Origin: Ostreococcus lucimarinus
Taxonomy: Eukaryota
Assembly: GCA_000092065.1 (NCBI GenBank)
Contig: CP000589.1
Reading direction: 5' to 3' (one strand)
Length of the DNA stretch: 64,000 bases
This document shows positions 10,515 to 60,985 of this stretch, one piece after another (the stretch's first letter is position 1; each line of letters opens with the position of its first letter). Position numbers and translations under genes: made by a program. The notes under the pieces are model-generated. The model was not told where the DNA came from. It saw only the letters and a list, made by a program, of their open reading frames with translations, and did not search any database.

Positions 10515-10598
10515 AATTTTAGACATCCATGTTGAAATCGACGGAGCCGTCGCTTATCCACAGCCCGTGCGCGCGCAGAGTCTCCACAGCGCGACGTG

Positions 10599-11876
10599 AT
10601 GCATCGCGCCCTCGCTCGAACTTCTCTGCGGGTATCGCGTCACGACTTAACGACATCAATCTCCAGTCCCGCGTCGCACGCGCGTCGTCGCGCGATGCCC
10701 GCGCTGTCGTCCCGAGCCGACGCCGACTCGAAATCTGTCCCCACCGGGTCGCGAGAGCCACACTTTCGGTTCGGTTTGCTCGCCGACATACAGTACTGCG
10801 ACGGCGACGACCGCAAAAACATCACCGGAACGCAAATGCGGAGGTACAGGAACACGCTGAACGTCGCGGAACGGGCGGTGGAGTATTTTAACACGCACGA
10901 GTGTGACTTTTTGGTGCACAACGGAGACATCACCGACCACCAGTGCGCGTTTGATTTCGCGAGCGATGATTTTAAGCCCATCGAGCGCGGAAGAGAGGAT
11001 TTAGGGGCGGTGATGCGGATATTGAGCCGAGCGAAGTGCGCGGAGTGGTTGTTCACGGTTGGGAATCACGAGCTGTATAATTTTACGCGAGAGGAGTTGC
11101 GCCAAGGCGTGGCGAGTCCTGGGAATTCGTTGAATTTGAAATGCTCGAACGCGGATGGGGAGTTTTATTACTCCTTCAAAGCCGGACCGGGATGGCGAGT
11201 GATGGTGCTGGATCCGTACGCGGTGAGTATTTATCGCAAAGGTCGCCAGCAAGGGCTGTGCGAGGAAGCGGTGGAGCTGTTGCGCAAGCACAACCCAAAC
11301 GTCGACTTGTTCGTCAAGGAAAATCCAGACGTGATAGAGACCGAACGCATGAGCGGGACTTTTCCGTACTTCAAAGACATCGAGGGGCTGGCTGGGCGAT
11401 GGGTGCCGTTTAACGGAGGATTGGGGAAAGAGCAAATCGCCTGGGCTCGCGAGACGATTCGCGCCGCGAGCGCCGCAGACGAAAAGGTATTAATCTTCTC
11501 TCACTTGCTCATCCACCCGCACTCCACGGCGAAAAGATCGGGCAAGACTTTGATGTGGGACTACGACGAAATTTTAGAAATTATCGAGGCCGAGGAAACG
11601 CGAGGGTGCGTGAAGTGCGTAGTCTCCGGCCACCAACACGAAGGCACAAAGTGGCAGTGCGAGAAAACGGGCGTGCATTACATCGGCATGGAGAGCCCGA
11701 TGCTAGCCATGGACGTGTCCCCGGGACCATTTGCCATCGTTGAAGTCTTCGATGATGAAATTGTATTCAAAGGGTACGGGCGAAACGAGGACTCGCTCTT
11801 ATTCCCTTTCGATCCAGAAGAACCACCGACGGAGCCGTTGTTGTGCAGTCTTCGTGTGAATTCGCATGATCCTTAG
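10599..11876 (+). CDS. calcineurin-like metallophosphoesterase, ADP-ribose/CDP-alcohol diphosphatase (ADPRM)-like
   Basis: FRFGLLADIQY...GDDRKN...HNGDITDH...GNHE motifs match Mn-dependent ADPRibase. The first in-frame ATG is at 10599, and an alternative ATG at 10695 (MPALSS) is possible. The N-terminus looks like a targeting peptide. Confidence 0.7.
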   Translation: MHRALARTSLRVSRHDLTTSISSPASHARRRAMPALSSRADADSKSVPTGSREPHFRFGLLADIQYCDGDDRKNITGTQMRRYRNTLNVAERAVEYFNTHECDFLVHNGDITDHQCAFDFASDDFKPIERGREDLGAVMRILSRAKCAEWLFTVGNHELYNFTREELRQGVASPGNSLNLKCSNADGEFYYSFKAGPGWRVMVLDPYAVSIYRKGRQQGLCEEAVELLRKHNPNVDLFVKENPDVIETERMSGTFPYFKDIEGLAGRWVPFNGGLGKEQIAWARETIRAASAADEKVLIFSHLLIHPHSTAKRSGKTLMWDYDEILEIIEAEETRGCVKCVVSGHQHEGTKWQCEKTGVHYIGMESPMLAMDVSPGPFAIVEVFDDEIVFKGYGRNEDSLLFPFDPEEPPTEPLLCSLRVNSHDP

Positions 11877-11879
11877 AGC

Positions 11880-11970
11880 GCCCATCACACCACGTGTTGT
11901 ATTACTTTTACAATCCTTGTTAGTCATATTCTGTCGCTTTGCGATCGTCGCGCGCTTTCATCGGACGAAA
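11880..11970 (-). promoter_or_regulatory. candidate SECIS element region in the MsrA 3' UTR (unverified fold)
   Basis: Minus-strand 3' UTR read 5'->3': ...ccgATGAaagcgcgcgacgatcgcAAAgcgacagaatATGActaacaaggattgtAAAagtaatacaacacgtggtgTGATggg. It contains the SECIS core elements (AUGA, unpaired AAA, UGAU) at plausible spacing. I could not verify the helices by eye. Confidence 0.3.
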
Positions 11971-12064
11971 TCTCAGACGCAATGGCGTCTTTTGCGATTT
12001 CGTCGTCACGCGCGCGCGGACGTCGCTGCGCGAAAACAAATCTACTACTTTGACGCGACGAAAA

Positions 12065-12673
12065 TCACCACCCGAAACGCGACACGCGCGGTTTATTGTA
12101 GTACTTTTGATGGTACTCTTCGGCATCCCACCACGGTGTCGCTAAAGAGACCTCCGGCGGGTAGATATCGGTGAAGAACTTTCGCTGCACTTGCTTCTCG
12201 CGCGCTTCCTTGGACGCCACCGCTTTTTCGTACTGCTCGGGCGTCTGCGCCCAAATAGCGCTCTTATACTGCGCTTTGCTTTCGTACGTGGGTTGATGCT
12301 CGCTCCAAAACTGTTCCAACAGCTTATCGAAGCTCGTCGTCGCCGCGTCGTACGCCACGTAATACCCCTCCGTGTGCCCGGTTCCTCCGGCACACACCGC
12401 TGAATACGTCGGGAAATCGCTCTCGCCTCCTGTGTACCCGACCCTGACGTTCTTCACGCCCTTGAGCGCGCTGAACGAGGCGTCGGGCCCCCAAAATCAC
12501 CCAGAGGCGAAGACGGCGAGTTGGCAATTTTCCGGGACGACGAAACCATCGCCGCGGTCGGTGCGCCGCGCGTCCTTGCTCGCGGGCATCGCGGCGAGCG
12601 CGCGGACGTTTCTTTTGTTCGCGGACGCGCGCGAGGGAGCGGCGACGCGCGCGGTCGCGACGGCAGCGCGCAT
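12065..12673 (-). CDS. MSRA: peptide methionine sulfoxide reductase A, selenocysteine-containing (in-frame TGA at 12497-12499 replaces catalytic Cys of GCFWG)
   Basis: Two same-frame ORF-track entries (12497..12934 ending ...ENCQLAVFASG, and 12065..12457) are separated only by TGA. Read-through gives AVFASG-U-FWGPDASFSALKGVKNVRVGYTGG...TGHTEGYYVAYD...EHQPTYESKAQYKSAIW, a textbook MsrA with Sec at the catalytic position. Start trimmed to ATG (MRAAVATARVAAP, presequence-like) at 12673. Total length 202 aa. Confidence 0.8.
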
Positions 12674-12845
12674 CGGGACGCGCGTCCCGGTGTGACGTGG
12701 CCGCACAGATTTCGACCGCGCGGGCGCGCGCGGTCGAAATCTGAGGCGCACACCGGCGCGACGCGACGCGCGCGCGAGACGAAAGCTAGAGATATGATGA
12801 GTAAAAATATTAATCTCGCGCGCGACGACGACGGCGAGCGCGCGA

Positions 12846-13400
12846 TCAGCGCAGGATGACCAGAGACCAATCCGGGAACTTTGCGTTCCAGTATCGAACG
12901 CCCATCTGCGCGAGCGTTCGCGAGTTATCGTCAAACTTCTTCCCCGCGTACGCCAAGCGCACGAGCCCCGGCATGACTCCAGTTTTATCCGCGATGAGCT
13001 TTTTCACCTCGTTCACGCGCGTGGTGTCCGAGACGTCGATCCAGAACGGCCCTCCGTACTCGCAGTCGACGTGCAGCATGCTCGTGACGAGCAGACGCAG
13101 CGTCTTCGGCGGCTTTCTCATCGCCGCCACTTTCGCGTCGATGAAGCTCCCGAGCGGAATCCCTTTCGCCACGGCCTCGGCTTTATCCTTCAAGTATTCC
13201 TCGCGCGTCGGATCGTACATGGGCGTCCACTCCGAGCTCACCCCTCCCTCCCCGCGCGTCGCCGGCGCGTACCTCTCATCCTCCTCGTACCACGGGTACC
13301 CACCGTTCGGCGGGATCGTCGCCGTCGCCCCCGACCCCCCGGTCCCGGGCGCGTTGTTATACTTTGAAAACGCGAGGTCCGAGCTTCGATACGTCGGCAT
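12846..13400 (-). CDS. ubiquitin-like domain protein
   Basis: 184-aa ORF with verified ATG. The C-terminal ~75 aa (LRLLVTSMLHVDCEYGGPFWIDVSDTTRVNEVKKLIADKTGVMPGLVRLAYAGKKFDDNSRTLAQMGV) has a beta-grasp/ubiquitin-like pattern. Confidence 0.5.
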   Translation of the reverse strand: MPTYRSSDLAFSKYNNAPGTGGSGATATIPPNGGYPWYEEDERYAPATRGEGGVSSEWTPMYDPTREEYLKDKAEAVAKGIPLGSFIDAKVAAMRKPPKTLRLLVTSMLHVDCEYGGPFWIDVSDTTRVNEVKKLIADKTGVMPGLVRLAYAGKKFDDNSRTLAQMGVRYWNAKFPDWSLVILR

Positions 13401-13581
13401 CGCGTCCGTCCGCGTCGTCCTGTGCCGTTTTTCGCGGCCGTTTTTCTCGAGAGATCCAAACCGTTTTTTATCTGACGCGACCGCGCGAGGCGACGTCGCG
13501 CGAGTGGATAAGGCGCCTCACCGCGCCGCGCGCGCGCGCGACGCGCGCGGAGGCGCCGAAAAGCTAGGACCGCGCTCGAGA

Positions 13582-14628
13582 ATGACGCGCGCGTCGATCT
13601 GTCGCGCGGTGCCCGCGCGCGCCGCGCGCGCGGCGCCGCGCGCGCGCGCGAACGCGCGACGTGCGGGACGCATCGCGACGACGACGCGCGCGGCGTCGAC
13701 GACGGACTTCCCGAGCTTCTTCCCGCCCGAAGTGCGCGAACTCGAGGAACCGGCGGCGATCGCGATGGCGCGGCGGTGCCGATCGGTGTCGGTGGACGTC
13801 CCGGGGCGGGCGAAGGCGGTGCTGACGTCGTGCGCGGGCGACGCGGGGCCGGCGGGGAGCGACGCGGCGCCGTTCGTGCTGCTGCACGGATTCGATTCGT
13901 CGTGTTTGGAGTACAGAAGGTTGTTTCCGAAGCTCGCGGCGAAGGCGGAGACGTGGGCGGTCGATTTGTTGGGCTGGGGGTTCACGGACGCGCAGGATGG
14001 AGGGATCGGGGATTACTCGCCCGAGGCGAAGCGAGCGCACTTGTACGCGTTTTGGAAGGCGAACGTCGGGCGGCCGATGGTGCTGTGCGGTGCCTCGCTC
14101 GGGGGAGCCGCGGCGATAGATTTCGCGACGAATCATCCGGAGGCGGTCGAGAAGCTCGTGTTGATCGACGCGCAAGGTTTCATCGAAGGTCTCGGGCCGA
14201 TGGGCGCGTTGCCGCGGCCGGTGGCGAAGATGGGCGTGAACATTTTGCGCACGACGGCTTTGCGCAACGCGGCGAATCAAATGGCGTATTACGACAAAGC
14301 GACGTTCGCTACCGATGATGCGCTTCGCGTCGGGCGCTTGCACACGTTTGCGCCGCAGTGGTGCGACGCGACTTTGTCGTTCATGCAATCCGGCGGGTTC
14401 AAGGTGAGAAACTCCATCGCGAAGGTGCCGATGGAGACGCTCGTGTTGTGGGGTCGTGAAGACAAAATCTTGGAGCCCAGCTATGCTGAAAAGTTCATGA
14501 AGGAGCTACCGAACGCACGATTGGTGTGGGTCGAAAAGTGCGGGCACGTCGCGCACTTGGAGCAACCCGAGTTCATGTGCCAGACGCTTTGGGATTTCGC
14601 GGGAAAGACGAGCGCGGCGACGGCGTAG
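13582..14628 (+). CDS. alpha/beta-hydrolase fold protein with N-terminal transit-like peptide
   Basis: ORF 12856..14628 trimmed to ATG 13582 (the upstream part overlaps the Ubl gene). It has the HGFDSS oxyanion region and GASLGG nucleophile elbow (GxSxG), with a C-terminal His region (CGHVAHLEQPE). Confidence 0.8.
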   Translation: MTRASICRAVPARAARAAPRARANARRAGRIATTTRAASTTDFPSFFPPEVRELEEPAAIAMARRCRSVSVDVPGRAKAVLTSCAGDAGPAGSDAAPFVLLHGFDSSCLEYRRLFPKLAAKAETWAVDLLGWGFTDAQDGGIGDYSPEAKRAHLYAFWKANVGRPMVLCGASLGGAAAIDFATNHPEAVEKLVLIDAQGFIEGLGPMGALPRPVAKMGVNILRTTALRNAANQMAYYDKATFATDDALRVGRLHTFAPQWCDATLSFMQSGGFKVRNSIAKVPMETLVLWGREDKILEPSYAEKFMKELPNARLVWVEKCGHVAHLEQPEFMCQTLWDFAGKTSAATA

Positions 14629-33330: not shown

Positions 33331-35892
33331 ATGTCGAACCCGCTCGAAGAACGCTTCCGCAGGTCATGGTTCGAACACCTCAGTCGCCTTCGAGAAGTCG
33401 AAGCCGCGTGCGCGCCGGAGATCGAAGGCGATCCGGCCCTCCGGTACAGCGTGCCCCGGATCGTCTGCATCGGTGAAGAGTCCTCTGGGAAATCCTCCAC
33501 GCTCGAGCGCGTGGCGATGATGAGCGTGTTTCCGAGCGACGAGAGACTGTGCACGCGGGTGCCGATCGAGCTGCGGCTGAGGCATCGCGATCGGGAGAGT
33601 TTGGCAAAGGAGGAAGAGCGGTTTAGGGACGGGTACGTCGTCATGAAAATGGCGCCGGGCGAGGATTCCAAGTTAAACGCGGACGTTTCCTCACAGATGC
33701 ATCCCGATGAAGTTCCGGCGCAAGTTCGCACGTGGATGGAAGAGCTAGTCGCGGCGGCGAACGGCAAAGTGACGGGCGTGACGGATGACCGGATAATCAT
33801 CGAGCTGTACTCTCCGCTGTGCGTCAACCTGGATTTGATCGATTTACCTGGGATCGTGGCTGGGAGCATACCAGGGGAGCCTACGGACATGATGGACCGC
33901 ACGAGAAATCTATCGGCATCGTTCTTGAATGATAAGGCGCATCCACATACGTTTGTCATCGCCGTCGCATCGGCGCGCGAGGCGAGAATTCGTAACTCGC
34001 AAGCGATGGAATTGGTGCAGCGTTACAATAAAGTGCAATTCACTATTGGTGCTTTGACGATGGCGGATCTTTCAGCAGACAGTCGCCGTGAATCACCATA
34101 TACGAGACTGATCGAACGTTTGAATGCACAAGCGGACGATACGCCGGAGCTCGGTCTTGGGTACGTGGCTCTCAAGAATCGCGACACCGTTACGGCGACA
34201 CGAGAAAACCAATCGAGAGAAGAACTCGAGAAGGCCAACCAAGATGAAAAAGAATGGTTTGCTGAGCATCTTTCCGGACATACTGAACGCTGTGGCATTG
34301 AAAGTCTCGTCGATAGACTCGTGCAAAAAGTTGACGAGTACACCAGGGGGCCATGGATCGTAGCCGAGCGCGAGCGCATCGAGACTGAGCTCGTGAAAGT
34401 GCGACAAGAATTAAGCGACATGGGCGAGTTCCTGCCGAACGATTTGAATGAACTTATTTCTTACTTTTCCAGTGAGATAGAGAAGCAGTGTAAACCTTCG
34501 TTTGAAACACTTCTTGAGTTTGTTCCAACGGTGACATCCGGCAGCGCCGGACTGCAAGATATCTACGACGCCGCAAACTTTACGATTTGGCAACACAGCG
34601 ATATCCACTCGCTAATGCCGTCAATTTCTCCAACCACTTTAAAGACATTCGACGGTCGAATGTTCTACGGCGAACCCACCTTTACAAAAAGATGGTCGCC
34701 GTTTGTGAAAATCACGCACAAACATCTTTTTGGGCAAGACACGCAGACACCTGAGACACCGTCCCATGCCTCATCAAATGGCGTTTGGACAATGCGGCGT
34801 GACGCTATAAACACAATTTCAGATCACTTCAATCAGACTTTTTGTAACGGTAGCCTGCTATTCGTTGGCCGACGTTGCTCATACGACGACGATGGTTGCG
34901 GTGGTGACAAGTTGGTTGGATTCTTTATCACACAGGACATGATACAACAAAGAAGACACGATATTCAGACCATGTTGGCGGCGTTGGGCAAGCGTGTGCC
35001 AACAGACAACCGTTCTCCTTGGACGAAGAGAGAGAACCATGAGAGCGATTCTCAGGATTCGAATTCTCAGTCACCAAATAATGTTGGAACAGGCACTGGT
35101 TTTGATTTTGCTCCGAACCTTTTTACTCAGCGTGCAGAGCGCGGACCGTTTCGTCGCGCGCGACGTTCAACGCGCGGCGGTCTCGAACAAGATGGGGAAG
35201 TAGTTGTTCTTTACCACCCTGCACGACCAGCTTTCAGAGCGAAGTTAGAGATATCTGAGGACCTGGAGAAATATTATGAGAACGTCTTGCATCTGCGCGA
35301 GTCTGTCGTTCGGATTTTCCAGACGAATGCTCGCGCCTTCTTTAAATCATCAATCACGGACGTATTGGACGTTCTGAAAGCAAAGGATGCGCGATTTTCT
35401 GTGTTTTTCGAATCGCTCTCTGTGATTCTTGATGATTGGTGCGAGGTGTGTGTTCGGAACGTAACCACTGAATTTGCTGAGTGGCTTACGAGGACAGGAG
35501 CCGTATCAGAGAATCGTGATGCGCATTTTCAAATCACCGCTTCGTATTTTACTAACTCGATAACACGCAAAATGCGCGAAATGATATTCTTTCATTACGC
35601 TGATTCAAGCATTGCCAAAGTTTTCGAATCAGGCGAGCTCAATGAAATCATGCGGCGGCACTGCGACGAGCATAACATCGATGTAGACGATCTTTACGTT
35701 GAAAACTGTGTTGAACAGCGTAAGAAAGCGGTGATGAAAATGGAAATGCTGACAACCATGAAGAACAGCCTACATCAAATATTTACGAGTGAAGTGGACG
35801 AACAAAGTAACGAACAACTTCCAAACACGCCAGAAGCAGATGCGGCACCTGTCCCGACTCTCTCGCACTCTCTCAGTCGAACTTCGATCTGA
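33331..35892 (+). CDS. dynamin-superfamily large GTPase (Mx/DRP-like)
   Basis: PRIVCIGEESSGKSSTLERV (G1), ...TRVPIEL (G2 region), DLIDLPGI (G3), and LTMADLS (a TKxD-like G4 region). Long alpha-helical C-terminus. ATG verified. Confidence 0.75.
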   Translation: MSNPLEERFRRSWFEHLSRLREVEAACAPEIEGDPALRYSVPRIVCIGEESSGKSSTLERVAMMSVFPSDERLCTRVPIELRLRHRDRESLAKEEERFRDGYVVMKMAPGEDSKLNADVSSQMHPDEVPAQVRTWMEELVAAANGKVTGVTDDRIIIELYSPLCVNLDLIDLPGIVAGSIPGEPTDMMDRTRNLSASFLNDKAHPHTFVIAVASAREARIRNSQAMELVQRYNKVQFTIGALTMADLSADSRRESPYTRLIERLNAQADDTPELGLGYVALKNRDTVTATRENQSREELEKANQDEKEWFAEHLSGHTERCGIESLVDRLVQKVDEYTRGPWIVAERERIETELVKVRQELSDMGEFLPNDLNELISYFSSEIEKQCKPSFETLLEFVPTVTSGSAGLQDIYDAANFTIWQHSDIHSLMPSISPTTLKTFDGRMFYGEPTFTKRWSPFVKITHKHLFGQDTQTPETPSHASSNGVWTMRRDAINTISDHFNQTFCNGSLLFVGRRCSYDDDGCGGDKLVGFFITQDMIQQRRHDIQTMLAALGKRVPTDNRSPWTKRENHESDSQDSNSQSPNNVGTGTGFDFAPNLFTQRAERGPFRRARRSTRGGLEQDGEVVVLYHPARPAFRAKLEISEDLEKYYENVLHLRESVVRIFQTNARAFFKSSITDVLDVLKAKDARFSVFFESLSVILDDWCEVCVRNVTTEFAEWLTRTGAVSENRDAHFQITASYFTNSITRKMREMIFFHYADSSIAKVFESGELNEIMRRHCDEHNIDVDDLYVENCVEQRKKAVMKMEMLTTMKNSLHQIFTSEVDEQSNEQLPNTPEADAAPVPTLSHSLSRTSI

Positions 35893-46841: not shown

Positions 46842-47243
46842 TTCCCTCGACCGAACGCGCGCGCGCGTCGCGCCGTCGCGTCGCCGTGTCGCGCGCGCGC
46901 CGCGTTCGCGCGCGCCGTCGTCTCGAGCGTTACGCGTGCGTTTCTCGCGCGCGCTCGACGAGTCGACGCCGTCGCGCGCGCGCGCCGTCGCGCGCGCGTC
47001 GCGCGTCGCGCGCCATCGACGCGAGAAATTTCGCGTCGTCGGTTCGTCGCGCGCCGTCGTCGCGCGCGGCGTCGCGCGCGCGCGACGGCGTCGATTCGTC
47101 GCGTCGCGTCGCGCGTCTCTCGCGCGTCGCCTCGACCGCTCGAGGTCGCGCGCGCGATCGAGCGAGGGGTCGTCACTCGCGCGCGCACGACGCGGCGACG
47201 TCGGCGCGCGGGCGAGCGCGCGCGCGCGATCGACGCGCGTCGC

Positions 47244-55426: not shown

Positions 55427-56129
55427 CGGCGCGTAAAATGTAACCGTAACCGTTACTATTTTCAACCGCACGTACTGTAACTGTTTTCAAAAATCCGCGC
55501 GTCGACGCGGCACCGCGCGCGACGTCGCGGGAACGAACCGCGACGACGACGCGATCGTGACGTGCACGATCCATCGCCGTCGCGTCGGCGCGTCCATCAT
55601 CGCGGACGCGGCGCCGAACGAATCGGCGTTTTCGCGTCCCGAGTCACTCCGCCTTCGTCCCCGCGCGCCGCGCGTCGTCCCGCGACCGCGCGCGCGCCGC
55701 CGCGCGTTCGCCTACCGCGCGTTCTCGCCGAGCGCGCGCTCCACGGCGCTCAAGATGCGCTCAATCTTCACCGGATCGTCGACGTACCCGTCGCCTCGCG
55801 TCAACTTTGAGTGCACTAATTCGCCGGCGACTTTGACCTCGAGCGCGCCGCTCGTCGTCGGCGTCGGCTCCGCGGCCACGGAGGCTCGCGGAAATTTCGC
55901 CACGATGGCGCGCTCGATCGCCGTCGCGAAGCGCAGGTAGCCTCAGCCGCCTCAGTAAGTGATGTGTACGAGAGGATTCATCACGACGAGCGTCGCGAGT
56001 CGCGAAGTGACGACGAGTCGAGCGAGGACTGAAGGAATGTCGGAATACCGATGTTCGCGCGCGTGTCTAATGATATGGTTTCTAAAGCTACTGCGGCGCT
56101 GGCTACGGTGCGCGCGGCGCGCGCGGTGG

Positions 56130-60528: not shown

Positions 60529-60985
60529 CGACGCGCTCGTTTCGTTTGGTTCGCGCGCGAGGCAGGCTCGAGACGCGCAAACGGTACGACGACGCCGCGA
60601 CGCCATCGCGGCGTTAGACGTGGAAATAGCCGAGCGCGAATTGCGATTGGAAACTGCGACGGCGCGCGCGCGCCCGTTCGTGCACCGCTCGAGAGAACGC
60701 TTGTCGAGTTGGACGGAGGCCGCCGCGCGCCGTTTCGTGGCGACGACGCTCGAGCGCGAGCGCGTCGAGGATCTCGACGTTTTCGCGCGCGCCGCGCGTC
60801 AGGGGTGGGTCTTAGACGCGCACAAGTACCGTCGCACCGCGCCGCGTTGGCGCGTGTTAGATCCTCGATGCGGCGGCGTCGTCATTCGCGAGTATTAAGT
60901 CGCGCGTCTGGGTAGTTAGAGTAGCTCGTCCCGAACAACAGTCGTTGATCGTCCGACTTCAGACGCCGCCTCTCGCCTCGCCACG

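Follow-up and report, generated by a model that had tools for sequence, protein, structure and literature searches.

The minus strand of a 64,000-nucleotide stretch of Ostreococcus lucimarinus DNA (hereafter the window) carries a frame for methionine sulfoxide reductase A (MsrA) that is interrupted by one TGA, and the question raised by this locus is whether that codon ends translation, is an error, or is read as selenocysteine (Sec). Based on the results presented below, we put at about 96% the probability that the locus is a nuclear gene for a Sec-containing methionine-S-sulfoxide reductase A of O. lucimarinus CCE9901, in which UGA codon 59 would be decoded by means of a SECIS element in the 3' UTR. 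A preliminary description of this DNA had proposed a Sec-for-Cys MsrA, and this reading is supported by the conserved TGA, the coding constraint and the SECIS.

Reading frame and family membership

The two open reading frame pieces at 12497..12934 and 12065..12457 on the minus strand share a common frame, and translation from the ATG to the terminal stop meets one internal stop among the 202 codons, in the context GCC TCT GGG TGA TTT TGG GGG CCC. The preliminary description had noted two same-frame ORFs split by this single TGA, had read through it to a 202-aa MsrA and had placed it exactly at the catalytic Cys of GCFWG; the coordinates proved exact, and the other two points are borne out by the frame and by the following matches. 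With the TGA translated as Cys, the protein matches the Pfam family PMSR (PF01625) at 133 bits (E=1.3e-38; cut-off 23.7), and the match spans residues 53-195 and profile positions 2-147 of 153, which is nearly the full domain. In a search of solved structures, the TGA column falls on Cys51 of E. coli MsrA (1FF3, ...IAIFAMGCFWG...), with LAVFASG-(TGA)-FWGPDASF of the query aligned to IAIFAMG-C-FWGVERLF; in bovine MsrA (1FVA), the corresponding Cys likewise lines up with the TGA codon, and the homologues P0009 and P0032 have the Cys of GCFW at this position. The motifs GYTGG, GHTE and QYKSAIW are also present; they line up with the chains from E. coli and cattle and are kept in all nine lineages compared here. 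The roles of GYTGG, of the Glu of GHxE and of the Tyr of QY(K/R)SAI in the MsrA active site are established in the structural literature. Membership in the MsrA family is thereby established. At its other ends, the protein finishes in ...PRVSRFGW, with no C-terminal Cys, and begins with MRA..., followed by a stretch rich in Ala, Arg, Ser and Thr; the MRA start is common to lineages L004, L005, L007, L009 and L011. To judge from its composition, the N-terminus looks like an organellar transit peptide.

Table 1. Positions of the features of the MsrA locus and of the second selenoprotein gene within the window.
Feature	Position	Strand	Remarks
Sec-MsrA CDS	12065..12673	(-)	202 codons including Sec59, and terminal TGA at 12065-12067; ATG at 12673
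In-frame UGA, read as Sec59	12497..12499	(-)	Motif G-U-F-W-G; conserved TGA and alignment to Cys51
17 codons directly 5' of UGA	12500..12550	(-)	DGFVVPENCQLAVFASG; protein-level conservation; include Cys50
Residues around Sec59			QLAVFASG-U-FWGPDASFSALK
Form-2 SECIS of MsrA, 3' UTR	11948..12022	(-)	Rfam SECIS_1 sub-threshold match, fold, covariation
SECIS helix I	~12015-12020 with 11951-11956	(-)	CGCGCG/CGCGCG in the single-sequence fold
SECIS unpaired G	12009	(-)	Precedes the 5' core UGA
SECIS 5' core UGA	12006-12008	(-)	
SECIS 3' core GA	11961-11962	(-)	
SECIS helix II	11996-12004 with 11964-11972	(-)	9 bp; GACGAAAUC with GAUUUCGUC
SECIS apical AAAA bulge	11990-11993	(-)	12 nt past the core
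SECIS mini-stem	11985-11989 with 11976-11980	(-)	GACGC/GCGUC
TGA stop of the ubiquitin-like neighbour (control)	12846..12848	(-)	ORF 12846..13400 (-), exact match to XP_001419754.1
SelW-like CDS	55712-55981	(-)	89 aa, two in-frame TGAs; MNPLVHITY-U-GG-U-GYLRF...
Form-2 SECIS-like element of the SelW-like gene	55584-55657	(-)	R1 31.2 bits, E~3e-8; GUGAC...UGAU core, AAAA, 6-bp mini-stem

Locus and orthologous lineages

The window is gene-dense, with 53-67% G+C, and no tRNA gene was found within its 64 kb. Two of its proteins match entries of the green alga O. lucimarinus CCE9901 exactly, namely the ubiquitin-like XP_001419754.1 next to MsrA and the dynamin-like XP_001419538.1 at 33331-35892, in agreement with the algal origin that had been suggested from the sequence. 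Around the MsrA gene the order is abhydrolase / ubiquitin-like / Sec-MsrA / metallophosphatase / Vps18 (10596-14628). The MsrA and metallophosphatase genes are convergent, their stop codons lie 188 nt apart, and the SECIS is located inside this gap.

Orthologue contigs were fetched from the closest database relatives, and most lineages are syntenic marine-metagenome relatives. Nine lineages were compared: the window species itself, represented by three SRA assemblies (L001-L003), and L004, L005/6, L007/8, L009/10, L011, L012, L013 and L014. The gene order is conserved in at least six diverged marine-metagenome lineages (loci L001 and L004-L011), and of the nine lineages compared at least seven have it.

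SECIS element in the 3' UTR

The preliminary description had called for a search for a SECIS in the 3' UTR of MsrA, and one is present. The hairpin shows every part of a eukaryotic SECIS; it begins ~43 nt past the stop, its core UGA lies 57 nt past the stop, and the core is 489 nt downstream of the Sec-UGA. The mini-stem that follows the AAAA bulge makes it a form-2 element. Its predicted fold has an energy of -52.3 kcal/mol, with z=-3.55 against shuffled sequences. The Rfam model SECIS_1 matches 11949-12018 over its full length with 26.6 bits and E~1e-3, a sub-threshold match (gathering score 35) that appeared in a search of 101 nt only. Across 11700-12700, Rfam gave no SECIS at E<=10, and nothing was found when the whole 64-kb window was compared with Rfam at gathering thresholds.

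A SECIS hairpin lies 31-100 nt past the stop in the 3' UTR of each lineage (in L012 and L014 as read by eye). When the nine SECIS regions were aligned with MAFFT, L012 and L014 were misaligned, and they were left out of the covariation test. Among the seven lineages that remained aligned, the UGA, GA(U) and apical AA columns are invariant, and 92.7% of the helix II and mini-stem cells hold standard pairs, compared with 70.9% after shuffling and 31-54% when the partner strand is slid. Compensatory double changes occur in 12 of the 16 SECIS pairs, and a covariation score as high as that observed appears in none of 500 shuffles. The same helices are predicted independently by RNAalifold, together with helix I, which in the consensus is shifted outward by one base relative to the single-sequence fold. 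The covariation is carried by helix II and the mini-stem, since helix I is out of register across lineages and its support is mostly weak. A custom model built from seven sequences (R1) gives 74 bits for the MsrA element, and covariance-model scores in orthologues are 65-78 bits; for the most distant lineages, L012 reaches 12 bits only and L014 is unreported. The presence of a co-varying SECIS downstream of the MsrA frame is established by these data.

This result bears directly on the possibility that the UGA is read as Trp, Cys or Arg by a near-cognate tRNA, through local recoding or read-through that does not depend on a SECIS. Residue 59 is read here from the DNA sequence, which leaves some room for such recoding, but a hairpin with the invariant UGA...GA core, the apical AA and co-varying stems stands 31-100 nt past the stop codon in every lineage. 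Furthermore, O. lucimarinus is documented to make selenoproteins, and TGA is the normal stop both in the adjacent ubiquitin-like gene and in the MsrA gene itself; on the strength of the same two stops, genome-wide TGA reassignment was rejected. We therefore regard near-cognate recoding as very improbable, and Sec as the residue probably encoded.

Conservation of the UGA codon and of the surrounding frame

When the orthologues are read in frame upstream from the true stop, the Sec codon is TGA in nine of nine lineages; TAA, TAG, TGC and TGT do not occur there. The terminal stop, by comparison, varies among lineages between TGA and TAA, and the codons beside the TGA vary synonymously (GGG/GGA, TTT/TTC, TCT/TCG/TCC/AGT). 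This pattern indicates that the TGA codon itself is under selection. Among seven lineages, the differences at codon positions 1, 2 and 3 are 0.18/0.18/0.61 over the 17 codons that precede the TGA and 0.23/0.21/0.59 over the 25 codons downstream. Such third-position-biased change on both sides implies that both are translated in one frame, which establishes a continuous coding constraint and confirms, with numbers, the earlier remark that conservation resumes past the TGA. An intron removing the TGA was considered and rejected: in every lineage, the frame and G-x-F-W-G run on through the codon without a break.

The public gene models tell a different story, and those of prokaryotic-style callers are the argument for a truncated product or for two products, in which translation either stops at the TGA or starts downstream of it (for example at GTG 12457) to give an MsrA-like protein without the catalytic residue. 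The NCBI model XP_001419753.1 / ABO98046.1 is a 'predicted protein, partial' of 143 aa that starts with FWGPDASF directly after the TGA, so that the deposited annotation is truncated at the Sec codon and has neither the 58 N-terminal residues nor the Sec. The closest database relatives are all truncated as well; the orthologue models produced by metagenome gene callers are fragments of 97-136 aa, models of just the kind that prokaryotic-style callers produce. That gene callers would truncate this gene had been anticipated in the preliminary description. However, the called downstream starts differ from one model to another, which marks these models as artefacts. Moreover, the 17 upstream codons show, in this same frame, the substitution pattern of translated sequence, the TGA lies inside the G-x-F-W-G motif, and a protein without the nucleophile would be inactive. 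A truncated product thus has as little to recommend it as near-cognate recoding, and the full-length Sec-containing protein remains the preferred reading.

The least probable alternative is a pseudogene, or else a fault of assembly or sequencing, in which the TGA would be a recent nonsense mutation or a miscalled Cys codon. One base change does turn TGC or TGT into TGA, and the public models are truncated at this codon, but the independent assemblies L001-L003 of the same species agree fully in their read-through translation, the position of the internal stop included, which excludes a sequencing error, and the TGA recurs in all nine diverged lineages (the eight others included) though ~60% of the neighbouring third positions differ, with purifying selection on both sides of it and the conserved, co-varying SECIS downstream.

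A second selenoprotein gene in the window

Another finding is a SelW-like gene with two in-frame TGAs. With U taken as C, its product is assigned to the Rdx/SelW family (PF10262) with E=1.8e-13. The R1 scan covered the whole window, and besides the MsrA element it gave one further strong match, which begins ~55 nt past the TAG stop of this gene. That the window contains another selenoprotein gene, equipped with a SECIS of its own, was counted in favour of the Sec reading of MsrA and as indirect support for a Sec machinery in this genome. The protein itself is not new, as a two-Sec SelW-like protein with a U-G-G-U motif has already been reported for O. lucimarinus [Lobanov 2007, PMC2375036; Jiang 2020, PMC7539508].

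The SelW SECIS is unreported by the Rfam SECIS models, and minimum-free-energy folding also misses the element (z=+0.24). Two weaker R1 matches, at 60750-60793 and 47146-47189 (~18 bits), have no core or no helix and were dismissed as GC-rich noise. The two elements of the window illustrate that Rfam SECIS models under-detect SECIS elements of the Ostreococcus type (GUGA, long mini-stem), while R1 recovers both.

Comparison with known selenoproteins

Selenoprotein synthesis in these algae is documented. O. lucimarinus has been credited with 29 selenoproteins and O. tauri with 26, and MsrA stands once in each list (Lobanov et al. 2007, Genome Biol 8:R198, PMC2375036, Table 2); in the same work, the C. 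reinhardtii selenoprotein MsrA served as query, O. tauri was labelled with 75Se, and an Ostreococcus type of SECIS was described, a form-2 element whose core is preceded by an unpaired G and whose mini-stem is long. For Mamiellophyceae, a complete Sec machinery has been reported (Liang et al. 2019, PMC6627142), and MSRA has been listed as one of the selenoproteins most widespread in algae (Jiang et al. 2020, PMC7539508). The gene described here is almost certainly the Sec-MsrA catalogued in 2007 (PMC2375036), to judge from the single MsrA entry there: the organism is the same, the SECIS features at 11948-12022 are identical to those described, and nothing substantive differs. The finding of a Sec-MsrA is real but already known.

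Liang et al. (2019, PMC6627142) distinguished a 'bacterium-like' Sec-MsrA_b that is restricted to Mamiellophyceae and Mesostigma, and the Ostreococcus MsrA probably belongs to this class. Outside the Mamiellales-like group, the nearest full-length matches are MsrAs of bacterial MAGs with 44-49% identity, which fits the 'bacterium-like MsrA_b' label (PMC6627142).

Three further comparisons place the enzyme. Like the Ostreococcus protein, the MsrA of Chlamydomonas is green-algal, has Sec in place of the catalytic Cys and uses a 3'-UTR SECIS, but Chlamydomonas is a different lineage; the C. reinhardtii selenoprotein MsrA is reportedly the subject of work by Novoselov et al. in 2002 and Kim et al. 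in 2006. The search of solved structures also returned the chains 4LWJ-4LWM at E ~1e-25 to 1e-26, which we take to be the 1-Cys-type selenoprotein MsrA of Clostridium/Alkaliphilus oremlandii. That enzyme resembles the Ostreococcus MsrA in having Sec at the catalytic position and no C-terminal recycling cysteines. The two differ in the recoding signal: in A. oremlandii it is a SelB-dependent SECIS within the CDS, right after the UGA, whereas in Ostreococcus it is a eukaryotic kink-turn SECIS in the 3' UTR, 489 nt away. Finally, the Cys-MsrAs of E. coli (1FF3), cattle (1FVA) and poplar (2J89) match at E ~1e-29 to 1e-31. They share the fold family and the motifs GxFWG, GYTGG, GHxE and QY(K/R)SAI with the Ostreococcus protein, but their nucleophile is Cys instead of Sec; the E. 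coli and bovine enzymes also have C-terminal recycling cysteines, which the Ostreococcus MsrA does not.

Proposed mechanism of decoding and catalysis

From established selenoprotein biology and the general chemistry of MsrA, the mechanism of decoding and catalysis may be outlined. The form-2 SECIS, ~490 nt downstream, would recruit SBP2 and eEFSec with Sec-tRNA[Ser]Sec, and we infer that the ribosome actually inserts Sec at UGA codon 59 instead of terminating. The product would be a precursor of 202 aa with a probable organellar targeting peptide. In the G-U-F-W-G motif the nucleophile would then be a selenolate and not a thiolate; following MsrA chemistry, this selenolate would attack methionine sulfoxide, giving a selenenic acid that a thiol reductant would resolve.

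The route by which the enzyme may be recycled is more speculative. In the absence of a C-terminal recycling Cys, the Ostreococcus MsrA is probably a '1-Cys-type' enzyme, or else it uses another Cys. Two cysteines are candidates for this role. Cys50 (12524-12526, minus strand) lies nine residues before the Sec, in the pattern P-x-x-C-x-L-A-V-F-A-x-G-U; it is kept in seven lineages with synonymous TGC/TGT variation, is shifted to -7 in L013 and is absent in L014. Cys94 belongs to VCAGG and is found family-wide. On a fuller proposal, the Mamiellales Sec-MsrA would be a bacterium-derived, organelle-targeted 1-Cys-type selenoenzyme whose recycling proceeds via the lineage-specific Cys50, via Cys94 or via glutaredoxin/glutathione; taken as a whole, we consider this proposal unlikely.

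Significance

The locus serves mainly as a positive control, in that reading the raw sequence caught a real UGA-Sec recoding event that automated callers and the NCBI model still truncate. The entry XP_001419753.1 could be extended to a selenoprotein of 202 aa that includes Sec59, with its SECIS at 11948-12022, and the residual value of the analysis lies in this annotation repair and in a working SECIS model for Ostreococcus-type elements. On the biological side, the large selenoproteomes of marine picoalgae were already described, and nothing is added to that account. If true, recycling through Cys50, Cys94 or glutaredoxin/glutathione would refine the mechanism of a known enzyme to a modest extent and would not amount to a new system.
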